64,000 nt of DNA, taken from a virus (lineage: Duplodnaviria > Heunggongvirae > Uroviricota > Caudoviricetes). This document shows positions 9,914-46,704 of this stretch, in pieces; the first letter of the stretch is position 1; each line of letters begins with the position of its first letter. The translations under genes and the position numbers were made by a program. The stretch lies in IMG/VR virus record IMGVR_UViG_3300021407_000008; one strand, written 5' to 3'. The notes under the pieces are model-generated. The model ran no database searches, was not told the origin of the DNA, and saw nothing but the letters and a program-made list of their open reading frames with translations.

Positions 9914-10027
9914 ATGGGCAATAATCCGATTGTAATATGTGACCAATGCGTAGAAAGAATGAGGAAAGCATTGGGACTAGGTAAAGACGAATCGGTTCCT
10001 ACGTCGTTCCAGTTGTGGGGCCATTAA
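9914..10027 (+). CDS. Small zinc-ribbon protein
   Basis: MGNNPIVICDQCVERM...; 37 aa. Confidence 0.25.
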   Translation: MGNNPIVICDQCVERMRKALGLGKDESVPTSFQLWGH

Positions 10028-12789: not shown

Positions 12790-13080
12790 TTAACCAATGA
12801 GTTCATTTAATTCTTCCATGAAGCCTTCAAGTCGGCAAAGTTCAGAATTGGCGGAACCTAAATGTGCTAGTAGCGATGGTTCCGATGTCAACTTATCATT
12901 GCATCCATTTGGCGGCGCTGGCTGTACTCCGCGAATGCGATTCAAAACTTTAACTAATCGTTCATTGGCGCTGGCAATTCTGCACACAACTTGATTGGCG
13001 GTGTTATGTACACCATTGGGAACGGCTTGTGGAGCCGGACAAGATGCTTGCACTGACTGCATTCCAGCGGTGCCGTACAT
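12790..13080 (-). CDS. Hypothetical protein
   Basis: ORF; ATGA-type junction with the next gene. Confidence 0.35.
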   Translation of the reverse strand: MYGTAGMQSVQASCPAPQAVPNGVHNTANQVVCRIASANERLVKVLNRIRGVQPAPPNGCNDKLTSEPSLLAHLGSANSELCRLEGFMEELNELIG

Positions 13081-13580
13081 TACTTTTTCTCCTTGCTATC
13101 AGATGCCGGTTTGGCCGCTGGCGTTTCGTGAACTCTTTCCCAAATATAACCAACGCCTAAACGCCACTTAGTTTGGTCTACGCCTTTGTATATGGCGGTT
13201 AGCGAAGCCGAATAGTCGTCTGCTGCCTTAACGTATTCCTTGCCCTCTGGCGAGGCTAGAATCTTATTCTTGGCTATGTCTAAAGCGGCATCGGCCTTAC
13301 TTTTGGCGTTAAGCGCGTCCGAGTATTCCTTCCAAATTGGTTGCGCCTGAAGTTTGTTCAAGCTAGGATCAATCGCGTCACGCTGCGCGTAGAGCACTAG
13401 CTTTTGGTCGCGGCTAAGCGGTGCTGGAGTGTCTGATACCGCTTTGTTGGTTGGCAAGGTTAGGTCGCCAGCGGGAACCGTGGTTGAACCATTTTGGGCC
13501 AAGCAAGCTAAAGAAAAAAGCAGAACAAAGATTATATTTTTCATTGCGAGAATCCTAAACTGTGAGATTGGATTTGTCAA
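13080..13580 (-). CDS. Secreted protein (signal peptide)
   Basis: MKNIIFVLLFSLACLAQ signal peptide if the internal start is used. Confidence 0.4.
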   Translation of the reverse strand: MTNPISQFRILAMKNIIFVLLFSLACLAQNGSTTVPAGDLTLPTNKAVSDTPAPLSRDQKLVLYAQRDAIDPSLNKLQAQPIWKEYSDALNAKSKADAALDIAKNKILASPEGKEYVKAADDYSASLTAIYKGVDQTKWRLGVGYIWERVHETPAAKPASDSKEKK

Positions 13581-13581
13581 A

Positions 13582-13965
13582 CTAAATTGGGCATTCCTTA
13601 GTCGGCCCTACGTGTTGGTCGGCTCCGTAACCGCATTGTCTACATGGTGGACTAGCTACACGTTTACCGCGTATGTCCGCGTGCTGCTGCTTAAATTGCT
13701 GTTCGCTTACACAGATTTTACAGTTGGCTGCTGGCTGTATCTTGTGGTTTTTTTGGTGCCAATTGATATATTCCCAATTCTGTCTTTCGCTGGCAGTAGC
13801 GAATTCATCATTCGCGTCTACTGTAAATTCACGAAATATATTCCCTTTGCTATCGGCCCTTGTGCCCGAGAAGGAACTTTTCAAGCCCCTGATCGAGCCT
13901 GCTTGCCAAGCCTCTAGCTCTGCTTGTGTACACGGTCTAAGATTTTCAGTTTGATCGTCAGACAT
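13582..13965 (-). CDS. Cys-rich hypothetical protein
   Basis: C-terminal CxxC...CxxC cluster. Confidence 0.35.
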   Translation of the reverse strand: MSDDQTENLRPCTQAELEAWQAGSIRGLKSSFSGTRADSKGNIFREFTVDANDEFATASERQNWEYINWHQKNHKIQPAANCKICVSEQQFKQQHADIRGKRVASPPCRQCGYGADQHVGPTKECPI

Positions 13966-14096
13966 ACGTTAAACGTATTTTCATAAGAATAATCGGCGGG
14001 GCTGATTCATGGGGCCAAGAAAGAGGGAAACCACGTTTGCCCGTTTACGCATCTCGCGTAACACCACTTGCTCACCCGCCGAACGGTCAGTATAAA

Positions 14097-15365
14097 CTAC
14101 CAATCAACCAAAAGTCCACCGCTCGTTCCACCGCCGCCCGTTTGCGATGCACCAGTTTCGTTTCCGCCACCGCCGCCATCCCACCCGCTTTCTGGTTCCG
14201 AGTAGAGTATATTGCTTTTTGCCAACGCTTCCGTAACTGCATTTCCTTGCGACGTGGCGAGTCCCAATAGCCACGGAATATTCGGCGGCCCGCCCTCGCT
14301 AATCATCCCTTCCATGGCGGCTATCTCTTCATCTATGCCGGTAAATCCCGTGTGCCACCAGATCACGTCTGCCGTGGAATTACCGAAATCATTCTTACTG
14401 GTAGGCGGTGGGAGAGGTGCTGGCACTTCTACTATTTGGTTAATTGTTGGCGATGTGCTTGGGCCGTAGTTTGTATCGCCAGAATAAACACCAAAAACCG
14501 GATGTGTTCCAAGTCCCAAAATTGCGGTTGAATATTGCGCGGTTGCCATCCCTGCGCCAGCGGCGGATACGGCTACGGTTGTGACGTTAGAACCATCTAT
14601 GTTGAACGTAACCGTACCGGTGGGCGAACCAACGCCTCCGGGGCCGTTTACTGTAGCCGTAAATGTAACCAATTGCCCAAGGATTGACGGGTTGACGCTA
14701 CTAGTAATCGCAGTAGTAGTGGGGGTTATTACTGGCGCTGATTCATAAAAGAATATGCCTACGGCTGACAGGGTTTGCTGTGCGATACTTAGTGTGAATG
14801 TTGCTTGCTGTGTCCCGTTGCCTAGAAGGTAAGCGTTGCCACCACCATAGCTCCCAATAGGCGTGAATTTATCTAGCGTCCATCCAGAACTGACACTACA
14901 AACGGTTGCATTCGAAAAATTACCCCAACCCGGACCAGAAGCGTAAAAAGATGTTCCGGTTGCAGGCCCGACCAGAGATGGGCCAACCAAACTGCTAACG
15001 CTTCCACTGCTATTCGACGTTCCGTGAACTACGGTAAAAGCAAGATTGTTTCCACTTAACTCATAAACACCAGCGAAGAATAACTGGAGATTACCGCCTA
15101 CACTAGCAAACGTAATAGACGTACACGGCTTGGTGGTTTGCAGTATCCACCAAATTATCTCTATAGCTCCCGATGCTATCCCTGAAGGATTTTTAACCAA
15201 GACTTCGCCTTGGTCGGTAGTGAAGCTACCCTTCTGGCCGCCTTCTGCGCCAGTAGCTAGTAGCAACCAGTTACCAGCAGTAGAAGGCACAGAGAGATTA
15301 AACGTGCCAGAATTCGGCAAGCTAGCGTTTGTGTATATAGTTTTATTGACTAAGGAGACGGCCAT
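14097..15365 (-). CDS. Structural protein with a bacterial Ig-like domain and a Gly-rich C-terminus (tail fibre or virion-associated)
   Basis: The TVTFNIDGSNVTTVAV...YSGDTNYGPS segment is Ig-like. C-terminus carries GGGGNETGASQTGGGG. Confidence 0.4.
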   Translation of the reverse strand: MAVSLVNKTIYTNASLPNSGTFNLSVPSTAGNWLLLATGAEGGQKGSFTTDQGEVLVKNPSGIASGAIEIIWWILQTTKPCTSITFASVGGNLQLFFAGVYELSGNNLAFTVVHGTSNSSGSVSSLVGPSLVGPATGTSFYASGPGWGNFSNATVCSVSSGWTLDKFTPIGSYGGGNAYLLGNGTQQATFTLSIAQQTLSAVGIFFYESAPVITPTTTAITSSVNPSILGQLVTFTATVNGPGGVGSPTGTVTFNIDGSNVTTVAVSAAGAGMATAQYSTAILGLGTHPVFGVYSGDTNYGPSTSPTINQIVEVPAPLPPPTSKNDFGNSTADVIWWHTGFTGIDEEIAAMEGMISEGGPPNIPWLLGLATSQGNAVTEALAKSNILYSEPESGWDGGGGGNETGASQTGGGGTSGGLLVDW

Positions 15366-15750
15366 GCTGTGATTTTATGGGAAGTGTATTTGAAAGGATT
15401 TAGGCTGCGTCATTTCTGAGCAGGCTTCTCGCAAGGAGATGGCCGTAGCCGACCACCGTACCCGCCTAGTTTGCTCCTATTTCGGCAGCAGCCCTCGCAG
15501 CCTAAACTTGTTCGGCCTGTTTTATATCCCACAACGTTCTTGCGTGGAACTTGGCCGCCGCAATGCTCATCGGCGGCTCTGCTTTGCAAACCATTTCTAC
15601 GGCCTTACTGCGAATAAATTGCTGTCTGCCCGTTCGCTCACGTTTTCTCTTTGGAAGACAGCAAAACCTGCATGTCGGTTTTGCCGTTAAAAATGTGACG
15701 CTTGTATTGGACTCCATTGCGTAGGCACATTGACATGTAGCGATTATACT

Positions 15751-16029
15751 CTATCCCGAGTATCCGCTAGTCATTGTTTGCGGACCACCATCCATGGTTG
15801 GGTCTGTGCTTCCGGGAGCGGGAGATGATACTGATCCATTACCCATAGTTGCCGAGCGGCCTACTGTGTTGCCGCTACCTACGACCGCTTGTTGTGGTCG
15901 TGTGGCTGGTCTTTGGGCGGGACCAAAGAAACCAGGATTGCTAGAAAATACGTGAGGATTAGCTAGCGGCTCTAAACCCTTTGGGTTATCTGCCGATAAA
16001 TCGCTGAATTGCTTGTATGGTTCGCACAT
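15751..16029 (-). CDS. Hypothetical Gly/Pro-rich protein
   Basis: ORF in the array. Confidence 0.3.
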   Translation of the reverse strand: MCEPYKQFSDLSADNPKGLEPLANPHVFSSNPGFFGPAQRPATRPQQAVVGSGNTVGRSATMGNGSVSSPAPGSTDPTMDGGPQTMTSGYSG

Positions 16030-16031
16030 GA

Positions 16032-16546: not shown

Positions 16547-16796
16547 CGTCCTTGACTATATAATCAGCCGCTCCCATATAGAATCGCGACGGGTGATCGT
16601 AGACAAACAACTTTCTAACCACCGGAACCATGGGGTTGTGCCTAATACTGCCAGACTCGAATTCTTTTTGTCCTTGCGAGCATCCCGTATCACTACAGGA
16701 TGCCACGGAATCACCAAATCTATTATCCGCGCAAGCCATGGGTTTATTACATTCTCCGCAGTGTAATTGGCCATCTATGTAAATGGGATTCTTCAT
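16524..16796 (-). CDS. Cys-rich small protein
   Basis: CGECNKPMAC...CSDTGC. Confidence 0.3.
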   Translation of the reverse strand: MKNPIYIDGQLHCGECNKPMACADNRFGDSVASCSDTGCSQGQKEFESGSIRHNPMVPVVRKLFVYDHPSRFYMGAADYIVKDGVKIGGN

Positions 16797-17173
16797 AAAT
16801 TCTCTGTAGCTATAATTTTAATCCAGTAGTGTACGCCAACGCCAACCCACAGATATTGAGCGGTTACAAATTGGTCGCCAGTAGAAGGCGATTTTACTTT
16901 CCATAGTTGATGGCCGCTACCGCAGGTTGGACATTTTATACTCGTAAAAATTTCACCAGAATATAGCTTTGGAGCTTCTATTAAACATTGACCATTTACA
17001 GTGTGGTCGCATTTTATATCTAGTGTTATTACGTCGCCCTTATCTGCCCCTATGTTAATAAACAGCCCATAACCGCCATGGTTTTCGATATATATTTTGT
17101 TAGTGATAAGCGTGGATTGGGCTAAGCAAGTAGAAGCCAACAACACGAAGCTAGATAACCATTTCAATGGCAA
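16793..17173 (-). CDS. Secreted protein (signal peptide)
   Basis: Signal peptide MPLKWLSSFVLLASTCLAQS. Confidence 0.4.
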   Translation of the reverse strand: MPLKWLSSFVLLASTCLAQSTLITNKIYIENHGGYGLFINIGADKGDVITLDIKCDHTVNGQCLIEAPKLYSGEIFTSIKCPTCGSGHQLWKVKSPSTGDQFVTAQYLWVGVGVHYWIKIIATENL

Positions 17174-17541
17174 CCAGAACCGAATATCAATCCGGCATTT
17201 GTACCAGAACCAGATAAGACTGCGTTAGGGCAAGCGGTAAGCGCTGGTCCCGCTGGTCCTTGTGCGCCAGTGGCACCGGTTGGTCCTTGTGGACCGGCAA
17301 CAGCAAGTGCTACATAAGCCCCGCCAGCGAAACTGGTGTACCACTGATAGCTTGTTCCGCTACCAACCGCGCAGAGATATGCCTGATTCGATGGGCTGGG
17401 CGGGCACTGCGCTACCGTTGGGGCGATTGGACCAGAACCGATAGCGCCGAAGGACTGCGCCGAAACGGATGACACGCGGGAAATCCAGACCGCGAAGCCA
17501 ATTAAGATTACAACGAAACCGATTAACGACCGTTGCTTCAT
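17164..17541 (-). CDS. Collagen-like repeat protein with a signal peptide
   Basis: GPQGPTGATGAQGPAGP repeats in the GXY pattern. N-terminal signal peptide. Confidence 0.5.
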   Translation of the reverse strand: MKQRSLIGFVVILIGFAVWISRVSSVSAQSFGAIGSGPIAPTVAQCPPSPSNQAYLCAVGSGTSYQWYTSFAGGAYVALAVAGPQGPTGATGAQGPAGPALTACPNAVLSGSGTNAGLIFGSGCH

Positions 17542-19359
17542 TTAGTGAACTCCTACGTTTGCGCCTATGCCGATGTTGTTTCCGAAGGCTGCACCGGGGA
17601 ATACTACGGCTGAATACTGGTACGCTCCAATATCCCAGCACGGCAGACTACCTTGCGAAGTACAGGTTCCTGTAGCCGGACGAGCAATGGTGACCCGAGT
17701 GTTTCCTTTGGTCGTATCGTTGGCTAAGGTCGCCAGATTGCCGGTCGCAAAGCTACTAAGATCGGCCCCCTGAAGGATGATTGGAGAACCCGTCTGCGGC
17801 GATCCGTCTGAGTTCAACTGTATCGGCCACGATGAATAGACGTTCGCGGAAAATGATCCTCCAGCACTGGGGCTTACCGTGATAGAAGTTGGACTGTTGT
17901 AGGCCGTGACTGTGAATTCGTGGTAAGAACTAGTGAACAGGGAAAATGTATTCGTACCAACCATCGCAGGCACAAACTGTGGCCCAGAGGACCAAGTGAC
18001 GGCGGTGTTGTTTATGCTGGCCCTTCCCTCGTAGAGTGCACTGGAATGAGCATCACAGGAACACGCAGTCTGGAAGGCGGAGAAAGTTCCTTCCGAGGTT
18101 CCCTTCCAGTAGAAGCAATTGTTGCTGGCACCGCACGGTCCCCCGTAGATGTTGTAATCGAGTGTTGCCGTTGAACCGCCTGAGAATGTCCCGATATTAA
18201 TTCCCTGTGGACATTGCTGCTCCACATTATTCTCGAAAGTCAGGGCAGCGCCCTGCTGCTGGATCGACCAGCCAGCAGTGGTGTTGTCGAAAAAGTTAGG
18301 ACATAGCAAGGTGTTGTTGAATACTTGGGTCACTCCGCTCAGGCCGGAGAATAGTCCCACCCATCCGTTCGGATCAGCACCGTCTGCCTGGGAGGCATCG
18401 AATACGTTGTTCCACACGTAGGTATTACTGGCATTCGACATGGACGGCGAACCCTGCTCCATGAAGATGAACCCGGACGAACAAGCGCCGGACAGTAAAC
18501 CGTGAAACCAATTGTTGTAAATGTAGACGCCGTTCATGGTCGAACCTGCGACGCCGAAAGTGTGCAGACCATCGAGATGGTAGGTGCATCCCGAGGTTTC
18601 CCAATTCAGATTAGAGCCGAACTGGTTGTCATGCATGATGAAGCACGGAGCGGTGCAGGATATGGCGGAGCCGGTGGCGTATGCCGCCGCGTGATCCCAG
18701 TTCGTAATCACATTGTTAAAGATTTGGACGTTAGTGTCGCCGGAGCCGTAATTCGTATAAACGCACCATCCGCAGTCATGGATGACGTTGCCGGAAATTG
18801 TATTATTTTGCCCACTGTAGACGATGGCGTTCATTTGCGTTGCAGCCCCGCCGAGCGGGGAACCAAAGTTCTGAATGGCCACGTAGATGTTGGCAATCGT
18901 TAGGTTCTCAACAATGCAACTGGTGCATGGAGCCTCGAACACACCGATGGAAATATGTTGATTCGCCAACCCGTCGCCGTTAGCCGTGTTCTGAATCGTC
19001 CCCGTATTTTGCCCGTTGACAGTGATCCAACTTTGTCCGTGGATGTCCAGGCATCCGTTTGACCCGTTGCAGTAAGGGGCTTGAAGGATAGCTCCAGTGT
19101 CGAACAGTATCGTAATCGGACTGCCCGATGTGCCGCTGGCGTTCACGGTGACAATCGTTGCTCCCGCCGAGCCGGTGAACGTGCCGCATAGGTAATAGGT
19201 ATTGCCTGCCGTCCAAGTGACTGAACCCGGAGTGACGGCTGTCTGGCCGTTGCAGGCCGTGCCTCCGGTAAAGGTGCCAGCCGTGGCTGCGATGTAGACG
19301 GTCGCAGCGTGCCCGAGTGAGCATAGCAGCAGAACCGCGATGAGGTAGCGTCTTACCAT
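17542..19359 (-). CDS. Right-handed beta-helix protein (pectate-lyase fold; tailspike or depolymerase-like) with a signal peptide
   Basis: Repeating NNxI/GNVIHD parallel beta-helix rungs. N-terminal signal peptide MVRRYLIAVLLLCSLGHA. Confidence 0.5.
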   Translation of the reverse strand: MVRRYLIAVLLLCSLGHAATVYIAATAGTFTGGTACNGQTAVTPGSVTWTAGNTYYLCGTFTGSAGATIVTVNASGTSGSPITILFDTGAILQAPYCNGSNGCLDIHGQSWITVNGQNTGTIQNTANGDGLANQHISIGVFEAPCTSCIVENLTIANIYVAIQNFGSPLGGAATQMNAIVYSGQNNTISGNVIHDCGWCVYTNYGSGDTNVQIFNNVITNWDHAAAYATGSAISCTAPCFIMHDNQFGSNLNWETSGCTYHLDGLHTFGVAGSTMNGVYIYNNWFHGLLSGACSSGFIFMEQGSPSMSNASNTYVWNNVFDASQADGADPNGWVGLFSGLSGVTQVFNNTLLCPNFFDNTTAGWSIQQQGAALTFENNVEQQCPQGINIGTFSGGSTATLDYNIYGGPCGASNNCFYWKGTSEGTFSAFQTACSCDAHSSALYEGRASINNTAVTWSSGPQFVPAMVGTNTFSLFTSSYHEFTVTAYNSPTSITVSPSAGGSFSANVYSSWPIQLNSDGSPQTGSPIILQGADLSSFATGNLATLANDTTKGNTRVTIARPATGTCTSQGSLPCWDIGAYQYSAVVFPGAAFGNNIGIGANVGVH

Positions 19360-22300
19360 CCGAACACCGGAGTCAAAAGTTTTTCCTGCGCGAAGGCTCC
19401 CGCAGAACCGTAGCCGGAATTGTTCCGCAACTGTCCCGCGATGTCGTAAGGCAAAACGTTCGTCCCCGTGGGGAACATATTGATAGCTGGCGAATTGGAG
19501 AGCAGATCATAGTCTCCCCCGCCGCTGTTTCCGCTTGTCCCGTCGTAGGCTTTGCGATTCTTATAACTGGGAAGATTGATGGTCGTGTTCACGTTGCACG
19601 CTGGCGGCTGACCTCCGGTGAGCGTGGTGTCGGAAGTGTAGACGCCTGTGAACTCGGGGCAAAAGGTTCCCGTTGCTGGCCACCCAGTCGAACCTCCGCT
19701 GGCCTCGACAAAGAAATTCGACCGCATACCTGAGTTGTAAAGGCAGGCCCAAGCTCCGACACGTGCTCCGCTGGCTGTAGGGCCAGCGTATGTATCCTGC
19801 TTCGTCGCACGTTGGTCTATGATATTTCCGATGTAGCCGTGAGTCTGCCGGAAGGCGATTTGGTTCGTGACGTTCTGTCCGGAGTTATAGCACCAGTTCA
19901 TACGAGAGCCGACCATGTCGTTGTCCCACATCATCACGTTGTTAACCGGGGTCACGTTGTCGGTGTCGTCTGCGGAATTGATGACTATCGGGTTCGTGAT
20001 TGAAGTGAAGTCGTTCTCGAAAACATTTTGAACGACTGCAATCCCGATGGGGTTAGAGTTTGATTCACCCACGCTCACAGCATTGTTTGATGACTGATTC
20101 GCAAAATAAAGGGTGTTGAAGGCAAAAATCGGCATGATCGAAGCAGGGTTGCCCTGCGAGGCGAAAGCGTCTGCGAATGCGACGTTGGTATTTGACTTTA
20201 CCGTGTTGCCTACAGTCGTATATATGTTGGATAGCCCGGCACCAGTTACCGTGGTGACATCGTTGCCTCGAATGAGATAAAACCCCATGTTCGTCGTCGA
20301 GAATGCGCGGAGGCCGTTGCCAGCGAGTGTGCTGGGGATTACCGATTCCGTCAGATAAACATCGGTGACGTTAAAGATTGGAGCCGTCCCACCCGACGAG
20401 AGCGAGACGTTATCGAACCATAAGTATGTGCTCGAACTGAAGATGCTGGTCGGCGCGGTTGCCACGTTGATCGTGATATTCCGCATCCGAAACGGCGTGC
20501 CGCAGTTGGTCGAACCCGAGGTACAGCGTGACCCAAATCCCTGCGTATCCGAACCGTTGTACTGGTCAATAACGACCGATGATTGCGCCCCGCCGTTAAT
20601 CGGCGTGAAAGTCAGCCAGCACTTCCCGGTTGTATTCGAGTATGAAGTCGTTGATCCGGTGAAGTTGTAATACCCTGCTGCACCATAAACCCATCCACAG
20701 CCATCGGCGTGCGTCGGAGTTGCGCTGGCCGCATTGTAGGCTTCCACCTTGATCGCCGCGCCATTCAACGTGCGGCAAGCTGGCGGCGGGGAACTCTGAC
20801 TGAAGGATGAAGTCGCCACAGCGCAAGCGGCAGTGTCCACGCCTGCAAACGTCTGCGTCGTTGTCTGGGTGAATACCGCCCCGCTGGTCCCGCCCGTCAA
20901 GGTCAATCCAGTCGTAGTTGACCACGCTCCGCTAACGACCTGCCCTAGGTGAATTGGCCCTGCACCATTCGCTCCGGTCACGTCAATCAGGTAAGCGATT
21001 GCCCCGGAAGTCTGCTGCGTGACTTTCTCCCCGGCTTGAAATGTTCCTGACGTGTGGGAACCGCTCATCGTGAAGGAACTGTCCACGTAGGCTGAAGCCG
21101 TGTAAGCGTTGGTTGAGTCATAGAGATAGTATTGCGGCGAAGCCAAAGGCGAAGGTTGCGGATACACCAGGACCGGCGCGGCAGTCGGAGTAAACACGGC
21201 CCCGCTGGTCTGTCCAGTCCACGTATGCGAGGAGTCGGCAGCGGAGGACTGGCTTATGATCGAGCCGATAATCATGCTGGGCGCGTTGGTCCCCAAGGGC
21301 AGGTTATCGAGATAGGCGACTACGTTCGTGGTTCCCTGCTTCACCTGTTCATTTGCCACAAACGTTCCACTAGTCACCGATCCAGTTACCGTCTGGTCAC
21401 AGCTATCCATGACTGCCGTCTCGTCCCCAATCCACGGATAGGCCCGGTAGCACAGGGTCAACTGATCGTGGTTCGTGAACGTCGAAGTCGAAACATTTCC
21501 CACGTACTCAATGATCGGTGCCTGGTCCGTCGTGACCGTCTGGCCTCCGACAGTCACATCAATCGTCGGAAATCCCTGCGTTGAAGTCGCTACATTGCTA
21601 TGCGCGTCCTGTCCACTGAAGATTACGCAAGCAATCGGCAGCGAATATTGCGGAAGCTGAGAGAATCCCGTCCCGCGCACGTTCACCGAACTGCCGGTAA
21701 CTAACTGCCATCCAGGGTAAGTCCAGTTGAATATCGTTCTGGCGTTGGCATAAGTCAGCGTGGAATTGTTCGTTACCGAGGTTCCCGCCGCGACCGTACC
21801 AACCGTGTTGCTTGAGCCGTCTGTATAGAAACTGTTAGCCACTTGGACGGTGACAGTCTCACCGGCAAAGATTGCCACCATGCCATTGCTGCCGAGCGCC
21901 AGCCGGAAGGTCGTCGTCCCGCCATTGCTTACCGCGTCATAGGTGCTGGCGTTCGGATAAGGATCGCGTAGCGTATGCGTTGCCCAGAGCGTGCGTGTAT
22001 AGGTTGTCGTCGAGCCGCACGTGCCTCCATTCGCCGTTCCTTGGAATCCGGTGGAGGTCACAGTCAGAATCACCGATGGACTGGTGGGCTTGTTGTTGCT
22101 CGCCTGACTGAATCCAAAGTTGCCAAACGTCCCGCCTGTGTTGCCGATGGTCGGAACGTCGATCTCCAAGACCCAGCCGTTGCAGGCTTGCGTCACATAA
22201 CAGGCTGAGGAAATTACCGTGTAAGACTGAGACGTTGCCGCCGTGCAAGTCGGCGTTGAAGCCACGGTCACAGTCGTAGAATTGGTGAATGCTGAAATCG

Positions 22301-22523
22301 TGCAAACCTGGCCGTTGAATAGCACGCCCTCTTGAACCATGCCGGACGCGAAGCAATTGCCCGATGAAGATGTAAGCGTAGTGCCGCTCAGGGTTGCTGT
22401 TCCCGTACATGGGGCCGTCACAGTGCTCACGCCCATGATGCGAAAAGCTGTCGGAGTGTAGACTGTCGCGTGCGCCATGCTCGCGGCTCCGAGAAGTAGG
22501 AACCAGATCAGGCGTTTCATTGG
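19353..22523 (-). CDS. Large beta-helix/tailspike-like structural protein with a signal peptide
   Basis: Probable start MKRLIWFLLLGAASMAHA. C-terminal beta-helix-like NN repeats. About 1050 aa. Confidence 0.45.
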   Translation of the reverse strand, partial: PMKRLIWFLLLGAASMAHATVYTPTAFRIMGVSTVTAPCTGTATLSGTTLTSSSGNCFASGMVQEGVLFNGQVCTISAFTNSTTVTVASTPTCTAATSQSYTVISSACYVTQACNGWVLEIDVPTIGNTGGTFGNFGFSQASNNKPTSPSVILTVTSTGFQGTANGGTCGSTTTYTRTLWATHTLRDPYPNASTYDAVSNGGTTTFRLALGSNGMVAIFAGETVTVQVANSFYTDGSSNTVGTVAAGTSVTNNSTLTYANARTIFNWTYPGWQLVTGSSVNVRGTGFSQLPQYSLPIACVIFSGQDAHSNVATSTQGFPTIDVTVGGQTVTTDQAPIIEYVGNVSTSTFTNHDQLTLCYRAYPWIGDETAVMDSCDQTVTGSVTSGTFVANEQVKQGTTNVVAYLDNLPLGTNAPSMIIGSIISQSSAADSSHTWTGQTSGAVFTPTAAPVLVYPQPSPLASPQYYLYDSTNAYTASAYVDSSFTMSGSHTSGTFQAGEKVTQQTSGAIAYLIDVTGANGAGPIHLGQVVSGAWSTTTGLTLTGGTSGAVFTQTTTQTFAGVDTAACAVATSSFSQSSPPPACRTLNGAAIKVEAYNAASATPTHADGCGWVYGAAGYYNFTGSTTSYSNTTGKCWLTFTPINGGAQSSVVIDQYNGSDTQGFGSRCTSGSTNCGTPFRMRNITINVATAPTSIFSSSTYLWFDNVSLSSGGTAPIFNVTDVYLTESVIPSTLAGNGLRAFSTTNMGFYLIRGNDVTTVTGAGLSNIYTTVGNTVKSNTNVAFADAFASQGNPASIMPIFAFNTLYFANQSSNNAVSVGESNSNPIGIAVVQNVFENDFTSITNPIVINSADDTDNVTPVNNVMMWDNDMVGSRMNWCYNSGQNVTNQIAFRQTHGYIGNIIDQRATKQDTYAGPTASGARVGAWACLYNSGMRSNFFVEASGGSTGWPATGTFCPEFTGVYTSDTTLTGGQPPACNVNTTINLPSYKNRKAYDGTSGNSGGGDYDLLSNSPAINMFPTGTNVLPYDIAGQLRNNSGYGSAGAFAQEKLLTPVFGW

Positions 22524-25500
22524 AAGTTCTGCCCCGCCGTGCAGTAAGTGTTCGTGCCATCCAGTTTGCAGGAGTACCAATCCACGGCATTCGCCGCTGC
22601 GGTCATCACCGGAGCGATTCCACCGGGCCACTTCACCGAGGTCCAAGTCACCGTATCGCTGCCTCCCGCCGCCTGCGTGATCTTCAGATAGATCGTCGTG
22701 ATAAGACTAGTCGGCTGCGCAAAGGCAATGGTCAGGTTACCAGTCAGCGTAATCGACTGATACATCCCATTCGCAGGCGTAACCGTAATCGAGCCGGTTG
22801 TGGCGTTGCCAGTATTGTAGGTTGCATCGTAGACTTCTCCGCTCTTGTCCACGGCTAACTGGGTCGTGTTTCCGACTGCCAGATTCAAGAGGTTAGAAAA
22901 TGCCGCCGATGATGTATTAGTTACGTTCTCGTAGATTCCTTGACCCACAAGGCTGGAGTTGTTCCATGTACTTTCAAGCTGCAAAAGCGGCGGTCCGGTG
23001 GTTCCGGTTACTCCCGCTTGCTGAATTTCTATTGGCGTTGCCGTGGAACCAGAAGCCGTTCCGATTTGCACTACGGACTGATTAGCCAATTTATTCGTCA
23101 GGGTACCGCCAGTAGCAGCAGACGTTTCTCCGAAGCTCATCGCGTCTTGTGCATCGGTAGTTTGTGCCCAGTTCCAAAGAATCGGATTGTTCCCATTGGC
23201 AATAGTAGTAGTAGTAGTAGCTGCCGCAACTTGATCTAGTCTAACTGTAGAAGAACCCCCAAATTGAACATAGGTTAAGGAACTACCAGATGAACCAATA
23301 CTGGTAACCTGTGATGTCAACAGCCATCCGGTATCGGAGTTTGCCGTTCCTGACTGTACCGGTATTATCCCCGTATTATTAACATCCGAAGGTGTATCGT
23401 AGTCGAGCGCCCTTGTGAATACAGCCGAAACCCCGGTCGTACCAACTACTGTAGCGGTGTAGACTCCGTTCTGAGATGCGGTTGATTGGTTTTTAAATAA
23501 AACCCGTTGACCGATTGTGTTAATAGTTATTCCGTCGAGCGTAAACGTTCCAGTAGCAGTGATTGTAAAGGTGTCTCCAACGCCGCCGCCTACCTGAACA
23601 TAAGTTCCGGTTAGGTTGGCCGTGGATGCCGCGAGGACGGCTACTGCGGGATTGACACCAGCCAAAGCGTTAGCAACAGCTAGGTCTGTATAGGCAGTAG
23701 TGGCTACCTTTGTAGAATTATTGTTTTGTGATTGGGTAACAGCAACAACGTTTGTTCCCAGTGCCCCAGTGGTAATTGTTCCAGAAGAACTAACGGCGAA
23801 CTCAAGCGTTCCCCCAGATAACGTACCGTTAGTATTCGTGGCTCCAAGGTAAGCATCAAGCAAGTCCCCGGTATTTGTCCCTGATCCATCTTCGGCAATT
23901 ACTAATGGAACTTGGCTAGTACCAGTTCCGGTTGTAGCCACCAGTAAAGCTCCAGATGTGTTGTTTGAGTTAGAAGCATTTGTAAAGTAAAACGGGTAAT
24001 GTAGAGTTCCTGTTTCTACACCACCGAAACCATAGTTATTGCCTGCAGTAGTCTCCGTCCTCTGTACCTGCGAGGCAGAGCCGGTAACTTGATCCAGCGA
24101 TGGAGCAGAGCCAGAAGCGGTTAACGTGCTAGCTGAGTTCATGTCAATCAATGGCAGAGTTGTACTTATGGTTGCCGTAGAACCGTCGCCTAGGGTAAAC
24201 GTCCCAGAAACGGCTACAACTACTCCAACCGTGGCACCTTGAGAATTTGTGCAAGAAGAAGTTCCGCCGCTGTCGGTTACTTGCCCTGCCGTGCTACCAG
24301 CGCAAACCGTATCGCCTACCGTCACGGCAGCAGAAGCATTAATTGGTGATTGGCTTGGCGGAGAAAGAATTATATCCGTGTTCGAGTTGGCTGTTTCTAT
24401 AATCCCTAGCCAGTTTTGCGGAGAAGCGCCGCAATTCTTTACGGTCATAGCAGTAGTTGAAGAAATGCAGGCTAAATCCCACTGAGTAGAGGTTGCGGCT
24501 TTAATGTATTGTTTGCCGAAGCCAAGTATTCCCTGTAGTCCCTGCGTTGCTCCCGTACTTGCTCCGGGTTCGATTAGGACAGAACCAGCGGTAGATGAAG
24601 CATTGGTCGCAGCGTTTGAGCCTCCAGTGATTAATACTGGACCACCAGCGGAAGATGCACCGCCAGCGCCAGTCTCATTAGCTCCACGGAGAGTCAATCC
24701 ACCAAGAGCAGAGTTAGCGGAGGCGTCTTTTCCGCCAGTGATTGTTAATAGTTGTGTAGTAGTCGCATCGCTTAGCAAGTTGCTGGATTCTAGCAAGTCG
24801 GAAACAACCGTATTGCCATTGGAGTCGAACTTTATCAGGGCATTGGTTGTAGGGCTACCGGTAGATAGTTGCAACAAAGCACCATTGCCTTGTTCTCCAG
24901 TTACCCCCGAAATGGACAACGTATTGGTACTTAAAATTATTGGAGACGTGAATGTAGCGGTTAAGTCGCTAATCGCTGGCTGTGTCTGCGTAAGAACACC
25001 ATTGGTCCCAAGAGAGTTCAACCACTTGTGGGAAGAGTTAGCGAGAGCTACAACCGTAGTACCAATAGTTCCAGCGTTGCCAATTTCGTGAACTCTTAAA
25101 TCTGCTGAGTCGAACCAAATCAACGTACCAGAAGCAGGGGCACTAGGTGCCGCCGAAGAAGGTAAGGAAATTTCCCCCGTTCCTGGAACGGTTGCAGACC
25201 CAGAAGCGAATCCAGCGGCAAATATATTGCCGGTAGCCGCGCATGAACCGCCAGAGCTAACATCAACTTGCCCTGCTGCCCCACGGCACAACCCAGTATC
25301 GGCAACATTTCCAGAAGTGGTCCAGATTAAGCTTCCGCCTAGATATTCGTTTCTGAATCTAAGTGCTGCGGAACCAAGGTCGATAGCATTATCGGACGCT
25401 GGAATCAACGAGCTATTAAGCGCCACGGCAGACAAGTTAGAAAGTTGTTGGTTAGCTCCCGATGCACCAGAATTCAATTGTTGAGTAAACACGTTTGTAG

Positions 25501-28500
25501 TAGTGCAGAAATATAGATTCTGGCCAGCGGTAGCATCGGTTGCAAAATAAACATCGCCAACCGTACACGTAGCAGGTTTTGCTGCCGTCAGTCCGGTAGT
25601 TGCTGGCGAACTATGAGCAGTGCTACGGAAGTTAACGCTTGCCGTGCTGGTTAGTCCGGTAAAGGTTCCTAATCCAGCGGTGCTTACACTATAAACGGAA
25701 GAACCACCTACCATCATGGTGATATATCCACCATAATTAGATATGCCGTTTGAGATACCGCCAGCAACCGCCGCTGGGCCTGCTGCTGGTGGGCAGTCAG
25801 TAGTTACGCTTCCATTGCCATCTAGACGGTAATAACCAATATGCGGACACGCTGCTTGGGTAACAACATTGGAGTTTCCGTCATCTACAATTACGTTTAC
25901 AGGAACGTTTGATCCTAGGCCACCATACCCACCAGCGGTTTCATCGTCGCTGTGCAGAATTTCTATTCCCACTGGAGTACCAAAACGGTTGCAGATATGG
26001 TATGCAGTAGAGTGGTTATTGCCAGTCGCGCCAGCGCTGATTCCGGTAGCGTTGCCACCTGTAGGTTGTCCGTTTTGCGTCCATCCAATATTTGAGTTAA
26101 TCCACAGATCATTGAATGTCCAGTTAGCCGTGGGACCATTACAACCGATTTCTACCGCCGCTAGTTTTGTAGACTCCAAGTGAGAATGCTCAAACGTCCC
26201 ACCCCAGCCGTTAGCAACGAAGTCATGTGCGGGGTACTCCGATCCAGCGGATTCCTTCAAGTTGGTGTTCGTAATAGTAAACTGCCGCCACGGCCTGAAA
26301 CCGGCAATTGTGTTAATTACGACTTCGTTTCCATAGGTGATTACCGTACCACCTGAACCAGCACTATCCCCTGCTCCGCCAAATCCATTTGTGGAAACTG
26401 CGTATTGGTTGGCGGCGGTGAATGGCGTACCAGCATAAGTCCATGGGTCAATTGTGTTGGCATAAGCAAGAGAACAAGTTGTTAATGTCGCAGATGTATG
26501 CCCGGCCGTAGAAGTGTTCAACCATCCGGTGATGGAACTGCTGCTAGATGAGTAGACCGTGAGAATCTTTCCGTTAGCAAAAGCATCTCCACCAGTACAA
26601 CCGCTGATGTAGACGAGTGCATTCATGGCGCATTTAGAAAAGCCAGCACCAGCAGCGGTTGTACAATTTGGACTACCAGTTTGTACCGTGTCTTGTGGAA
26701 AATCGTTAGTTGCCGTGATCGTAACTACGGCAGTGTTAGCTGCACCAGAAGCTATGGTTGCGCCAGTTACGGTCCCAGACATATCAGACATAGCCCCAAC
26801 CGTATATGTCCCAGAAATTGCTAGTCCGGTAATCCCGTTGGTTCCGTTGGCTGGGGTAGACAAACAACCATTGCCAGCGCACGGCGGAGTCCCGCCAGCG
26901 GTATGTGCAATACCTGAATCTGTTCCAATCAATACTTCTAACCCTGGATACGGAGAACATGTTGTGGTACCTGCTGCGCTGCAAGCTCCGCCGCTTACCG
27001 TAAAAATCATCACACAAGGAACGGTAGCGTTAGCACCGCACCCTTGCTGATTGAAGGCTGGAACTGACCAAGATGCCAGTGTAAATGGGGCCGCTCCGTC
27101 GCCAGCATTTGGATCGTTCGCAATTCCAGATGTTGCATTGCTGTGAACAATGTAAGCGCCTTCCCACGCTGTTCCGTTCTGTGTGGCACGAGAACCAGCA
27201 ACAATGCCAACAGGACAATCGTTGATCCCGATATAAGAAATCTTTGTATTATCTTGGCCAGACATGACGCTTGCGGCATAAGTAGGCCAGCTAGAAGCGC
27301 ACCCCAACTGCATTAGGCCAGCGTGAGTGTTATATGGACCGTAAACTCCAGCACCGTTAGCGGCTCCAGTTTGGCTTAGAGGCTGCCCCCAAGAAAATAA
27401 AGCGGGAGCGAATGTCGCGCCAGAACCAGCATTAAACGATACCGGCTTTAGTCCAGTAGGACCGTTGACGTTGTTGTTGCCAATAGCCGTTCCCCACATT
27501 TCGGCAGAGTTTTGCGGGTTAAAGTTTCCCGATGCAGCGAGTGGGATAATTCCAGCAGGAAGATATAGGGTACCGCTATTACCGGCGTCGGTAGATATTA
27601 CAAATGGGTTAGAAGAACACGAGATGTTGCCAGCACCTTGGATTTCTCCTCTGGCATCTGTAACTCCACCAGTATTGCTGTTGACCAAAGAAGTTGAAGC
27701 AGTATGGATAGCCGCGCAACGGTCTGCTCCAGAAAAAGCTACTGTCCATATTGGGTTAGCATTAGCTACGGGAGCGCTCGCACCATTGCCAACTGCTAGC
27801 TGTCCTTGTGGAACGGTGAGTCCGGCGATGTTGGTTGCGGTTGTAAAATAGGCAAACTGACTAGCCGTTGGTGGACCTGTGCTTGTAACCGTTCCCGTCC
27901 CAGAAGCATTGCAACTAACAGTAGTGGCACCGTTAGAAGCGTCTATGCAAAGCAGCGTTCCTGCTGCGCCAGTAATTGTTCCAGAAGTCAATATATTCGC
28001 ATCTGTACCCTGAAGCGGAACCGTGCTAGGTGTTCCGGTACCGGTTGCGATCTTAAGCATTCCAGTGGACAATCCGGCAAGATTGACTCCGTTGATGCCG
28101 GAATTGGTCATCACGCCGCCAGCGGTCATAGAAGAGTCGCCGCTAATAGCTGTTGCTACTGGAAGGTTTGAGGCGCTTCCAATCCAAATATCCGTGTTAG
28201 TCAAAGACGCTGCCGTAAGCTGATTGCTGGAATTTGTCGCGGCTACGGTTGCCGAAGTTGGGAAAGACCCGCCATTAACCTTGCTTGTGGTTGTTGAGCA
28301 GTTCCCGGCAGATGTAGTCGTGTCACCAGTAAGTGCTGGGGTTTGCGTACACGATAAAGAACCCGTCAAATCGCCAAACCCCGGCTGCGATTGTGTAAAC
28401 ACGCCCGTAGTATTGGTATAGCTTGTTAACCAATTGTGAGCCGAAGAAGCTATTGTTGATGGCCAAGTTAGCGTGCTTCCATTAGAACCGAATACGGGAA

Positions 28501-28906
28501 GATGGTTGGTTGTATTGAAAGCTATGACTGCATCGGTTGTAGGCGCTGCGCCCGCACCGTTGGGGAGAACTACGCCAGCCGTTACCGAAGCAGCAGACAT
28601 GTTAAATATGCCGGTAGAGCCAAGCGTTAGAGTATGGCTGGAATAAGACAAGTCAGTAAGCGTGGTTCCGCCGAATACCGCCGAACTGTTGTACTGAATA
28701 GCCCCGCTAGAACCTCCTGGACTTGAACCTGTACCGCCGCAAGTTCCGCCCGCATCTTCGATAACTGTTGCCGAAGCAAACGCTACGCAATGGCCTACGG
28801 TAATCGCTCCGGTAGTAGTAACTCCGCCACCGCCGCTAATCTGGGCGGACATGGCACACTGAAATGCCAGTAAGGCCAAAAATACTTTTAATGTATGTCT
28901 TAGCAT
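22517..28906 (-). CDS. Giant (2129 aa) Thr/Ser/Gly/Ala/Asn-rich fibre or adhesin-like protein with a signal peptide
   Basis: Uninterrupted 6.4-kb ORF. Signal peptide MLRHTLKVFLALLAFQCAMSA. Low-complexity repetitive composition. Confidence 0.55.
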   Translation of the reverse strand: MLRHTLKVFLALLAFQCAMSAQISGGGGVTTTGAITVGHCVAFASATVIEDAGGTCGGTGSSPGGSSGAIQYNSSAVFGGTTLTDLSYSSHTLTLGSTGIFNMSAASVTAGVVLPNGAGAAPTTDAVIAFNTTNHLPVFGSNGSTLTWPSTIASSAHNWLTSYTNTTGVFTQSQPGFGDLTGSLSCTQTPALTGDTTTSAGNCSTTTSKVNGGSFPTSATVAATNSSNQLTAASLTNTDIWIGSASNLPVATAISGDSSMTAGGVMTNSGINGVNLAGLSTGMLKIATGTGTPSTVPLQGTDANILTSGTITGAAGTLLCIDASNGATTVSCNASGTGTVTSTGPPTASQFAYFTTATNIAGLTVPQGQLAVGNGASAPVANANPIWTVAFSGADRCAAIHTASTSLVNSNTGGVTDARGEIQGAGNISCSSNPFVISTDAGNSGTLYLPAGIIPLAASGNFNPQNSAEMWGTAIGNNNVNGPTGLKPVSFNAGSGATFAPALFSWGQPLSQTGAANGAGVYGPYNTHAGLMQLGCASSWPTYAASVMSGQDNTKISYIGINDCPVGIVAGSRATQNGTAWEGAYIVHSNATSGIANDPNAGDGAAPFTLASWSVPAFNQQGCGANATVPCVMIFTVSGGACSAAGTTTCSPYPGLEVLIGTDSGIAHTAGGTPPCAGNGCLSTPANGTNGITGLAISGTYTVGAMSDMSGTVTGATIASGAANTAVVTITATNDFPQDTVQTGSPNCTTAAGAGFSKCAMNALVYISGCTGGDAFANGKILTVYSSSSSSITGWLNTSTAGHTSATLTTCSLAYANTIDPWTYAGTPFTAANQYAVSTNGFGGAGDSAGSGGTVITYGNEVVINTIAGFRPWRQFTITNTNLKESAGSEYPAHDFVANGWGGTFEHSHLESTKLAAVEIGCNGPTANWTFNDLWINSNIGWTQNGQPTGGNATGISAGATGNNHSTAYHICNRFGTPVGIEILHSDDETAGGYGGLGSNVPVNVIVDDGNSNVVTQAACPHIGYYRLDGNGSVTTDCPPAAGPAAVAGGISNGISNYGGYITMMVGGSSVYSVSTAGLGTFTGLTSTASVNFRSTAHSSPATTGLTAAKPATCTVGDVYFATDATAGQNLYFCTTTNVFTQQLNSGASGANQQLSNLSAVALNSSLIPASDNAIDLGSAALRFRNEYLGGSLIWTTSGNVADTGLCRGAAGQVDVSSGGSCAATGNIFAAGFASGSATVPGTGEISLPSSAAPSAPASGTLIWFDSADLRVHEIGNAGTIGTTVVALANSSHKWLNSLGTNGVLTQTQPAISDLTATFTSPIILSTNTLSISGVTGEQGNGALLQLSTGSPTTNALIKFDSNGNTVVSDLLESSNLLSDATTTQLLTITGGKDASANSALGGLTLRGANETGAGGASSAGGPVLITGGSNAATNASSTAGSVLIEPGASTGATQGLQGILGFGKQYIKAATSTQWDLACISSTTAMTVKNCGASPQNWLGIIETANSNTDIILSPPSQSPINASAAVTVGDTVCAGSTAGQVTDSGGTSSCTNSQGATVGVVVAVSGTFTLGDGSTATISTTLPLIDMNSASTLTASGSAPSLDQVTGSASQVQRTETTAGNNYGFGGVETGTLHYPFYFTNASNSNNTSGALLVATTGTGTSQVPLVIAEDGSGTNTGDLLDAYLGATNTNGTLSGGTLEFAVSSSGTITTGALGTNVVAVTQSQNNNSTKVATTAYTDLAVANALAGVNPAVAVLAASTANLTGTYVQVGGGVGDTFTITATGTFTLDGITINTIGQRVLFKNQSTASQNGVYTATVVGTTGVSAVFTRALDYDTPSDVNNTGIIPVQSGTANSDTGWLLTSQVTSIGSSGSSLTYVQFGGSSTVRLDQVAAATTTTTIANGNNPILWNWAQTTDAQDAMSFGETSAATGGTLTNKLANQSVVQIGTASGSTATPIEIQQAGVTGTTGPPLLQLESTWNNSSLVGQGIYENVTNTSSAAFSNLLNLAVGNTTQLAVDKSGEVYDATYNTGNATTGSITVTPANGMYQSITLTGNLTIAFAQPTSLITTIYLKITQAAGGSDTVTWTSVKWPGGIAPVMTAAANAVDWYSCKLDGTNTYCTAGQNFQ

Positions 28907-46702: not shown

Positions 46703-46704
46703 AT

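Follow-up and report, generated by a model that had tools for sequence, protein, structure and literature searches.

In the textbook account, tailed phages are assembled wholly within the cytoplasm. A lack of signal peptides has been used as an argument for the phage origin of proteins (PMC6199706), and we found no report in the literature of signal peptides on tail fibres of tailed phages. The locus described here, within a stretch of 64,000 nucleotides of viral DNA (the window), raises the question of why a run of fibre- and spike-like phage proteins should begin with apparent Sec-type export signals, and where such proteins would act once exported. A sequence-only reading of the locus had suggested either secreted or cell-surface cargo, such as depolymerases or adhesins, or an unusual route of assembly. 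Its premise holds, in that signal conservation, paired and even-numbered cysteines, and periplasmic-type homologues from exopolysaccharide (EPS) clusters all indicate fibre- or spike-like proteins with real export signals; between cargo and assembly route, our preference for the latter is slight.

Genomic setting of the block

The window belongs to a 103-kb contig with an SU10-type portal (gene at 6102..8234, minus strand; 26% identity to Tunturi_3 gp2) and is, judging from sequence comparison, part of a podovirus of about 103 kb. Among isolated phages, its nearest relative is Tunturiibacter phage Tunturi_3. The terminase large subunit (10024..11748, minus strand; phrog_38, E 2.2e-44), encoded directly downstream of the block, likewise has its best GenBank phage match in Tunturi_3, at 25.5% identity. 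Because Tunturi_3 is the nearest isolated relative, the host is probably a member of the Terriglobales (Acidobacteriota), and further host links come from modules of the block that are common to Terriglobales prophage-like elements.

The block lies on the strand of the terminase gene, directly upstream of it and, by synteny with a sister phage (L063), far from the tail core, whose canonical genes are probably not contained in the window. Tail-core identity in the sister phage is defined here by BLASTP to Tunturi_3 gp12, gp13 and gp19, whose roles are annotation-level, and searches of PHROGs and PDB sequences returned nothing for these presumed tail-core proteins. By megablast, the block matched no GenBank phage. 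It might be supposed that the phage carries the block as a passenger acquired from a host, a moron or set of auxiliary genes that has no part in the lytic cycle, as the occurrence of its 605-aa protein family in host EPS clusters and of relatives of its giant protein in chromosomal prophage-like elements would allow. This seems most improbable, however: the genes share one orientation, are coupled in translation and belong to the late gene train that immediately precedes the terminase gene; analogous blocks are found at this position in several phage lineages that are not related; and the G+C content of the block is raised only slightly.

Export signals at six gene starts

The proposal that six ORFs begin with Sec-type signal peptides was borne out: in 6/6, a basic n-region is followed by a hydrophobic core and then by a small-x-small site. 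These N-termini were judged by our own feature heuristics together with conservation in orthologues and homologues, and all have the layout of type I signals, in which a short basic n-region precedes an uninterrupted h-region of about 8-15 hydrophobic residues and positions -3 and -1 are occupied by small ones. All six genes are on the minus strand. The 154-aa protein (13080..13544) starts at 13544 with MKNIIFVLLFSLACLA, then QN; the 124-aa protein (16793..17167) at 17167 with MKWLSSFVLLASTCLA, then QS; and the 125-aa protein (17164..17541) at 17541 with MKQRSLIGFVVILIGFAVWISRVSSVSA, then QS, its signal spanning approximately residues 1-28. Of the larger products, the 605-aa protein (17542..19359) starts at 19359 with MVRRYLIAVLLLCSLGHA, then AT, and the 1055-aa protein (19353..22520) at 22520 with MKRLIWFLLLGAASMAHA, then TV, the signal comprising residues 1-18 in both; the 2129-aa giant (22517..28906) starts at 28906 with MLRHTLKVFLALLAFQCAMSA, then QI, its signal occupying residues 1-21 (28906..28844). 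Some of these starts are corrected ones. The ORF at 13080..13580 begins at ATG 13544; the 1056-aa ORF begins instead at ATG 22520, overlapping the upstream stop (ATGA); and for the ORF at 16793..17173 the true start is most likely TTG 17167, which overlaps the upstream TGA (caTTGAaa), an arrangement also present in the relative L011 (use of TTG 17173 would give 126 aa).

The signal-like N-termini in the block are not a product of chance, because they are enriched there and persist in orthologues despite sequence drift. A strict signal pattern was found in 5/11 block genes and in 4/67 elsewhere (Fisher p=0.002); it misses the 2129-aa protein, which has one Gln inside its h-region and whose inclusion would bring the block to six. 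Comparison with related phages showed the signals to be kept in orthologues though the signal sequences themselves diverge. Thus orthologues of the 154-aa protein in L011 and L014 retain the signal peptide, and the L014 orthologue of the 125-aa protein retains both signal and A|Q site. A signal is also present in at least 103 of the 120 homologues listed for the 605-aa protein, in all 7 giants, and in almost every close, full-length homologue of the 1055-aa protein. The evolutionary signature is one of a variable signal sequence, a conserved cleavage region and a conserved mature N-terminus, the mature start in the 605-aa family being ATTRYIAQxAGTFSGGTACNG.

Cleavage is predicted to fall before Gln in 4/6 block proteins, and [AGS]Q follows the h-region in 84/88 signal-like members of the fibre-module family, against 16% expected. 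This resembles the Q-rule of Bacteroidetes, in which Gln occupies +1 after cleavage by signal peptidase I, with examples in Porphyromonas gingivalis prophages (PMC10367356, PMC5837995). A Bacteroidetes host, which the A|Q sites might suggest, was nonetheless rejected, as Shine-Dalgarno-like motifs are present in the window and all host links lead to Acidobacteriota; nor have the Porphyromonas prophage proteins been described as fibre-like.

Other readings of these N-termini were considered. They could be uncleaved inner-membrane anchors, serving exclusion or as an assembly scaffold, or propeptides cut by a phage protease from proteins that stay in the cytoplasm. Cleavage by a prohead protease has been invoked to account for signal-like N-termini of capsid proteins in other phages (PMC10367356), the h-region of the 125-aa protein is long, and the signal calls are purely heuristic. 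Against this, small-x-small sites stand directly before conserved mature N-termini in hundreds of homologues, the same signals occur on host-encoded relatives, and both the excess of [AGS]Q and the even-numbered, paired cysteines, the latter indicative of an oxidising compartment, argue for processing by export; retention in the cytoplasm or its membrane is accordingly very unlikely. By inspection, none of the six N-termini has a lipobox (L-x-x-C in register) or twin-arginine (RR) motif; lipoprotein signals were rejected, the Cys residues being out of lipobox register and not conserved in orthologues of the 154-aa protein. Dual translation starts yielding a cytoplasmic isoform were likewise rejected, the Met near the cleavage site in two proteins not being conserved in homologues. 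Pfam searches and inspection of the C-termini revealed no C-terminal sorting domain (T9SS, PEP-CTERM or autotransporter barrel) in block proteins, and a scan of the larger remaining ORFs turned up neither a phage-encoded DsbA nor a signal peptidase.

Proteins of the block and their cysteines

Pfam and PHROGs returned nothing for the three large block proteins. Predicted structures and fold matches confirmed the beta-helix assignment made from sequence in two cases, the 605-aa protein and the C-terminal half of the 1055-aa one. In the former, a right-handed beta-helix of polysaccharide lyase/hydrolase type begins at residue ~20, directly after the signal; the AF2 model (pLDDT 85.5) matches PL6/PL9 lyases, glycosidases and tailspikes in fold. 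The protein has 236 homologues, with homology over most of its length and invariant His, Asn and Asp columns in the family alignment, and those that are named come from Acidobacteriaceae and Terracidiphilus; tblastn gave no match to GenBank phages. It is 38-57% identical to two proteins (P0087, P0026) encoded inside acidobacterial EPS clusters, whereas its own gene lies in a phage late region and not in a polysaccharide biosynthesis cluster. In the 1055-aa protein the signal is followed by Ig-like beta-sandwich domains, including ~70-aa tandem repeats at 377-555, and by a C-terminal right-handed, depolymerase-like beta-helix that resembles VexL, WceF and RbmB as much as tailspikes. Both may be polysaccharide-degrading beta-helix proteins.

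The 2129-aa protein is fibre-like and mosaic, sharing modules in differing combinations with six other proteins (P0002-P0007), all of them signal-bearing. Residues 1684-2003 match the tail fibre orf22 of Legionella phage LME-1 (PDB 9EFK; E 2.6e-14) over its residues 188-518, a shaft module of a fibre resolved in the virion, and this module was found in 7765 cluster representatives. The sister phage has a conserved counterpart of the N-terminal 311 aa, whereas modules in the interior and at the C-terminus have been exchanged, in some cases with unrelated phages. Such a mosaic with a lineage-conserved N-terminus is the pattern of a candidate receptor-binding protein, and the conserved 311 aa may leave room for a novel anchor. 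The giant had no match among GTDB genomes, and its C-terminus none among GenBank phages by tblastn. The (CTA)6 run at 23205-23222, to which attention had been drawn, is real, yet gives no indication of a special role: it is read in frame as ACT x5 and merely encodes Thr5 (AAATTTTTIA), so that phase variation at this site was rejected.

The small proteins of the block are more heterogeneous. The 125-aa protein, described earlier as collagen-like, does contain a short Gly-X-Y stretch and shows weak matches to Collagen and tail-fibre families, but falls below the Pfam Collagen cut-off (16.8 vs 27.2 bits); its mature part has 4 Cys and no charged residue. Four Cys are conserved in the 124-aa protein (KCDH..C, CPTC). 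The mature 154-aa protein is charged, largely helical-looking and free of Cys. Two neighbouring genes, also on the minus strand, encode low-charge proteins without a signal. One, inside the block (14097..15365), specifies a 422-aa protein with a Big_3_5 Ig-like domain, which may be a conventional virion-surface protein; a homologue is present in L014 and absent from L011 and L012. The other (28906..29304), immediately upstream of the giant gene, encodes a 132-aa protein conserved at the same position in the relative L012; kinship with a signal-bearing 132-aa protein of L061, or with small proteins near the MCP, was rejected, these being unrelated.

Cysteine content sets the signal-bearing proteins apart from ordinary fibres. 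In the five Cys-containing block proteins the mature counts are 4, 4, 20, 20 (the latter two in the 605-aa and 1055-aa proteins) and 34 (in the giant, where charged residues make up 6.5%), arranged in near-neighbour pairs. Signal-bearing gp12, 13, 14 and 17 of Tunturi_2, an isolated Terriglobales podovirus, have 20, 10, 20 and 34 Cys, and the signal-less fibres of Tunturi_3 have 0-7, mostly in odd numbers. Paired, even-numbered cysteines point to an oxidising compartment, and in conjunction with the export signals this argues that the block proteins probably fold outside the cytoplasm.

We are thus rather confident of the following outline. The six products would be exported late in infection through the host Sec translocon, cut by signal peptidase I at small-x-small sites, mostly before Gln, and folded in the oxidising environment of the periplasm, where many consecutive disulfides would form, yielding very low-charge proteins suited to acidic soil. 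The exported set would comprise two putative polysaccharide-degrading beta-helix proteins, one giant mosaic fibre and three small accessory proteins.

Virion appendages or free proteins

Where these proteins act after export is less certain. That the block constitutes a host-recognition and envelope-degrading cassette of the ~103-kb Terriglobales podovirus is a proposition we hold at about even chances. We assign a comparably balanced probability to the more specific proposal that the large block proteins at least are receptor-binding and depolymerase appendages; the capsid-tail particle would be built in the cytoplasm and would meet the appendages, which then dock on it, once the holin opens the inner membrane or at lysis. 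The principal alternative is that the proteins are exported and never enter the virion, acting as enzymes and adhesins, free in the periplasm or released, by which the EPS or LPS of the infected cell and its neighbours is stripped or remodelled. Receptor destruction, avoidance of progeny trapping, superinfection exclusion and matrix loosening are conceivable uses, and true receptor binding would fall to a tail nozzle or to proteins not yet recognised. This alternative is a serious one, though we rate it somewhat improbable, and we lean slightly toward virion appendages.

Several observations favour free proteins. Members of the 605-aa family are, so far as their sequences indicate, periplasmic-type proteins of host EPS clusters, where no virion is involved, and the protein itself is a bare beta-helix. 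An N-terminal particle-binding domain was not found in the block proteins, nor did any of them match the gp15 anchor of Tunturi_3. In the 1055-aa protein the beta-helix is as close to the periplasmic or biofilm depolymerases VexL, WceF and RbmB as to tailspikes, and, going by synteny in the sister phage, the block is separated from the tail core. Tunturi_3, from the same host genus as Tunturi_2, manages with ordinary signal-less fibres, and L061 encodes a conventional gp15-like fibre besides its signal-bearing block, so that such blocks can be accessory. Moreover, the Q-rule signal proteins of the Porphyromonas prophages were read by the authors of that study as host-surface modifiers (PMC10367356).

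On the other side stand the giant's shaft module, shared with a tail fibre proven in the LME-1 virion, and its mosaic evolution behind a lineage-conserved N-terminus. A Sec signal by itself cannot, furthermore, carry a 2100-aa protein across the outer membrane. Gene order in other phages also argues for a virion role. In a P22-like contig, signal-bearing proteins of tail-fibre families are interleaved with MCP, adaptor, head-closure and ejection genes, within the core morphogenetic operon. Tunturi_2 (PP885685) encodes six consecutive signal-bearing proteins, gp12-gp17 (1190, 675, 918, 113, 149 and 1280 aa), in the late gene train, where genes for the MCP and a tail protein immediately precede them; charge is low in the four large proteins, most of the signals terminate in A|Q, and the depositors' annotations are tail fiber, pectin lyase and virion structural protein. 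These are the only large fibre candidates in Tunturi_2, no other fibre-sized gene is apparent there or in the sister phage, and a signal-less fibre gene is absent from the tail-core region of the latter.

The Tunturi_2 and window proteins have no similarity by BLASTP, and the paper describing Tunturi_2 does not mention signal peptides. Both genomes nevertheless have a signal-bearing, low-charge, Cys-paired block, which follows the MCP and a tail protein in Tunturi_2 and precedes the terminase gene in the window. Analogous signal-bearing blocks were found in several unrelated phage lineages, and over half of the nearest metagenomic relatives examined show the signature. It is conceivable, at a probability we place a little short of even, that tailed phages of Terriglobales practise a two-compartment virion assembly in which capsid and tail core form in the cytoplasm and Sec-exported, disulfide-folded appendages, trimmed by signal peptidase and often left with Gln at the N-terminus, are mounted after the holin breach, a route undescribed for Caudoviricetes.

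Relation to known systems and implications

The block proteins resemble phage tailspikes and fibres such as P22 gp9, the HK620 tailspike, T7 gp17 and LME-1 orf22 in their beta-helix or fibre-shaft modules, in module exchange and in late-gene location. The known proteins of that type, however, lack a signal peptide, contain few disulfides or none, bind the particle through an N-terminal domain and are assembled in the cytoplasm, whereas the block proteins combine a Sec-type signal with no recognisable anchor and, in five of six, paired cysteines. The combination of signal peptide and beta-helix in the 605-aa protein is instead that of periplasmic beta-helix enzymes of EPS and capsule clusters; fold matches among enzymes of this kind include VexL (6FI2), WceF (6TGF), RbmB (9OZD) and an alginate epimerase/lyase (8JA4). 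Judging from their PDB titles, VexL and WceF are presumably periplasmic or secreted enzymes of polysaccharide clusters. The setting differs, in that the genes described here lie by the packaging genes of a lytic phage genome, alongside fibre-like giants.

Exported proteins of tailed phages include endolysins of the fOg44 Lys44 type, spanin lipoproteins, T5 Llp and lambda Bor/Lom. Like the block proteins, these are phage-encoded users of host Sec in infection or lysogeny, but all are small proteins for lysis or exclusion, or morons; they are not fibre- or spike-like products of 600-2100 aa, and are not known to form conserved multi-gene blocks. Virion proteins with Sec signal peptides that are incorporated outside the cytoplasm occur in filamentous phages (pIII/pVIII). 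Those phages, unlike the present one, are extruded at the membrane and have no capsid, portal or terminase. Phage endolysins that carry signal peptides have been described (PMC8878798).

The class defined by predicted export signals and a disulfide signature is represented in several unrelated lineages among the phages of an abundant soil phylum, and the apparent trait is general for these phages, cultured Tunturi_2 included, which makes the question of virion versus free proteins directly testable. Either reading affects the prediction of receptor-binding proteins in soil viromes, the expression of such proteins, for which oxidative folding is needed, and the way signal peptides are read in phage annotation. 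If the proteins are free enzymes, they would represent a widespread phage strategy in which the host polysaccharide envelope is dismantled from the periplasm. If they are virion parts, they would define a new assembly pathway, one that would explain the stability of phage appendages in acidic soil.

Phage affiliation and genome features

The window is part of a tailed phage whose genes in this region all lie on the minus strand; it encodes a terminase large subunit (10024-11748, minus strand, phrog_38), a portal protein (6102-8234, minus strand, Pfam SU10_portal), a primase/helicase and a RecT-like protein. A 103,165-bp metagenomic contig encodes the giant protein in identical form. No nucleotide similarity to GenBank phages was found; at the protein level the nearest isolate is Tunturiibacter phage Tunturi_3 (TerL 25.5%, portal 26% and MCP 35% identity), a 97.6-kb podovirus of Terriglobales (PMC11924767), and three ~100-kb IMG/VR contigs are closer (TerL identity 62-79%).

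The major capsid gene (227-1720, minus strand) is interrupted. Exon 1a (1720..1649, minus strand; MSYQPASVLTTTAGLTHLASIYYD, then TAA) is followed by a gap of 41 nt (1648..1608), not a multiple of three, then by exon 1b (1607..1581, minus strand; RVAVENLKA), an insertion of ~600 nt carrying a LAGLIDADG-like ORF (982-1581), and exon 2 (~982 to 227, minus strand). Rfam returned no group I intron in this gene at gathering score, and the gene of a related phage (L012) has no interruption. Homing-endonuclease genes are dispersed over the late region: GIY-YIG between terminase and portal genes (8316-9053), HNH after the portal (5293-6102) and HNH upstream of the block (30369-30833); at the first two of these sites the relatives carry other ORFs. 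Genes next to the block on its upstream side (31092-34387) encode a membrane-anchored SPFH/Band_7 protein of 600 aa and a 468-aa homologue of the Ro60/TROVE RNA-binding protein; Rfam gave no Y-RNA-like family at gathering score. Clustered on the minus strand are 27 tRNA genes (46620-49861 and 53172-54262), covering 19 of the 20 amino acids, with none for His or Trp; G+C is ~48%, versus 55-60% in presumed hosts. Genes at 55730-57435 probably form a lysis cluster: 56974-57435 encodes a protein with an SLT domain, 56332-56882 small membrane proteins, and 55730-56329 a lipoprotein-like product (MLKKLFSFTLVFALCFSMIAC), a candidate outer-membrane spanin.

Signal peptides and their conservation

The six ORFs to which the sequence-only reading had assigned Sec-type signal peptides are real, and each starts with a basic n-region, hydrophobic core and small-x-small site; three of the six starts needed correction. 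The first protein (154 aa, 13080..13544) begins at ATG 13544 and the 1055-aa protein (19353..22520) at ATG 22520, overlapping the stop of the giant gene (2129 aa, 22517..28906), while the ORF first read as 126 aa (16793..17167) most likely begins with TTG at 17167, overlapping the upstream TGA, as in the related contig L011. The 125-aa (17164..17541) and 605-aa (17542..19359) proteins complete the set. Cleavage is predicted between Ala and Gln in four of the six, and at HA/A or HA/T in two. Under a strict pattern, signal-like N-termini occur in 5 of 11 block genes (6 with the giant) versus 4 of 67 elsewhere (p=0.002), the latter including one lipoprotein-like and one holin-like ORF near an SLT-domain lysis-like gene; our signal calls combine N-terminal features with evolutionary evidence. 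Another small ORF with a signal-like N-terminus (3722-4060; MIKTLIAAAVIFASTFSFG) lies between portal-proximal genes and a 388-aa ORF (1918-3084) upstream of the capsid gene. Tat-like N-termini are found on small ORFs of related phages, namely 5229-5597 of L011 (MNRREFFAALFG) and 3897-4382 of the sister phage L063 (VNRRRFLQLAAGAG), the latter also weakly similar to major capsid protein fragments.

Comparison with related phages, proposed earlier as a check, bore out the signals: orthologues retain them despite sequence divergence, and the mature N-terminus is conserved. In the 605-aa family the signal directly precedes a conserved ATTRYIAQxAGTFSGGTACNG in at least 103 of the 120 best homologues; in the 1055-aa family it precedes ATVYTPTAFRIDG in nearly all full-length close homologues, and all seven giant relatives possess one. 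As independent evidence, the five Cys-containing proteins have 4, 4, 20, 20 and 34 mature cysteines, spaced as near-neighbour pairs; in the 125-aa protein and the three large ones, charged residues make up only 0-8%. Tunturi_3 fibre proteins that lack signals are likewise low in charge, but their cysteines number 0-7, mostly odd counts. Paired cysteines track the signal peptide, the pattern expected of proteins folding in an oxidising periplasm. That these N-termini serve some purpose other than export is unlikely in view of this pattern and of the conserved cleavage site; export of the block proteins into the periplasm is well supported and highly probable.

Among signal-like N-termini of the fibre-module family (P0173-P0321), 84 of 88 have [AGS]Q directly behind the hydrophobic core, versus 16% expected, and giants encoded in Terriglobales MAGs show the same pattern. 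A Q-rule is known in Bacteroidetes (PMC5837995), and prophages of P. gingivalis carry genes for Q-rule signal proteins whose function is unknown (PMC10367356). A Bacteroidetes host, which the Ala-Gln sites might imply, does not fit: Shine-Dalgarno-like motifs are present, and nothing found connects the phage with that phylum. Such a Q-rule-like pattern, seen here outside Bacteroidetes, suggests that these exported proteins carry N-terminal pyroglutamate.

Fibre, lyase and host relationships

Sequence comparison shows the giant to be a mosaic: its counterpart in the sister phage shares residues 1-311 and 1003-1709, giants of Terriglobales prophage-like elements share 327-824, other giants share 1713-1882, and the final 118 residues recur in an unrelated phage of 53 kb, in a signal-bearing protein of 474 aa. 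Its description as fibre-like was upheld, residues 1684-2003 matching residues 188-518 of PDB 9EFK orf22 (E 2.6e-14), a chain whose 18 copies fit the six tail-fibre trimers described from cryo-EM of Legionella podophage LME-1. This module is widespread, with 7765 cluster representatives at E<=1e-3; among the 150 best matches, at least 88 of 149 new representatives bear signals, and members without them resemble ordinary tail fibres or are fragments. The 125-aa protein, called collagen-like, does contain a short Gly-X-Y run but falls under the Pfam Collagen cut-off.

The proposed beta-helix of the 605-aa protein was recovered as a confidently modelled right-handed beta-helix (pLDDT 85.5) that begins at ~residue 20 and has no docking domain at its N-terminus; PL6/PL9 polysaccharide lyases, glycosidases and tailspikes have similar folds. 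Two bacterial members of the family lie in exopolysaccharide-type gene clusters of Acidobacteriaceae-like contigs, amid an initiating transferase, DegT aminotransferase, deacetylase, Wzx-type flippase and glycosyl-/methyltransferases.

Relatives of P0003, the giant of a Terriglobales element, number 34 in Acidobacteriota/Terriglobales MAGs, within syntenic prophage-like elements ordered S24 repressor, small ORFs, signal-bearing giant, signal-bearing ~750-aa protein, terminase and portal. These relatives, the named homologues and kinship with the Tunturi phages point to a probable Terriglobales host. In many Terriglobales genomes the elements (L023-L056, e.g. L024 6457-21890) lie next to an SLT/LysM lipoprotein gene that is itself conserved; their short early region encodes a dual-specificity phosphatase, and their giants span 1000-2400 aa. 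Site conservation across genomes suggests that the element is old or domesticated.

Virion appendages or free enzymes

Signal-bearing fibre/spike blocks occur in other phage lineages. An 87-kb phage has one just upstream of terminase, several 36-50-kb contigs carry them, and in a P22-like contig genes for signal-bearing proteins, one of which matches tail-fibre PHROGs, are interspersed among the MCP, adaptor, head-closure and ejection genes. Unlike Tunturi_3, which has ordinary fibres, the isolated podovirus Tunturi_2 encodes gp12-gp17 (1190, 675, 918, 113, 149 and 1280 aa) all with signals, mostly ending at Ala-Gln; mature cysteines number 20, 10, 20 and 34 in the four large proteins. Its depositors named gp13 tail fiber protein, gp14 pectin lyase and gp17 virion structural protein, and signal peptides go unmentioned in its paper (PMC11924767).

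Tens of kb downstream of MCP the sister phage encodes homologues of Tunturi_3 gp12/gp13, gp19 (1136 aa, nozzle-sized) and gp23, with Gly/Gln-rich internal-protein-like genes, a transglycosylase-like gene and an additional 546-aa protein with a hydrophobic N-terminus; no fibre gene lacking a signal lies in this tail-core region. None of the tail-core proteins was annotated by searches against PHROGs and PDB sequences, so their roles are inferred; by synteny, the corresponding genes would fall outside the window. Between capsid and tail genes, in a stretch of L017 beyond window position 1 (12562-17878), a sugar-modifying set (histidine phosphatase, methyltransferases, NAD-dependent epimerase/dehydratase) might serve DNA modification or glycosylation of virion or exported proteins.

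The exported proteins could act as free enzymes or adhesins, a reading to which we give about one chance in three: the 605-aa protein is akin to host EPS-cluster proteins, an anchor domain is missing, the block is distant from tail genes, and in a 53-kb phage, whose tail is Tunturi_3-like and whose signal-bearing block abuts the tail genes, that block coexists with a conventional gp15-like fibre. We slightly favour, at about even chance, signal-bearing appendages that join the virion, because of the homology to a real fibre, the receptor-binding-protein-like mosaicism with a lineage-conserved N-terminus, the signal-bearing genes inside structural operons of other phages, and the lack of an alternative fibre gene in Tunturi_2 or the sister phage.

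Known exports of tailed phages include endolysins, spanins, exclusion lipoproteins and morons. In our literature searches no paper described a signal peptide on a tail fibre or spike of a tailed phage, a provisional result given incomplete literature coverage, and a lack of signal peptides has been cited in support of a phage origin of proteins (PMC6199706). Exported appendages would meet the particle after holin opens the inner membrane, a step that is physically plausible and so far undescribed; there is a substantial chance that these phages use a truly new assembly route.
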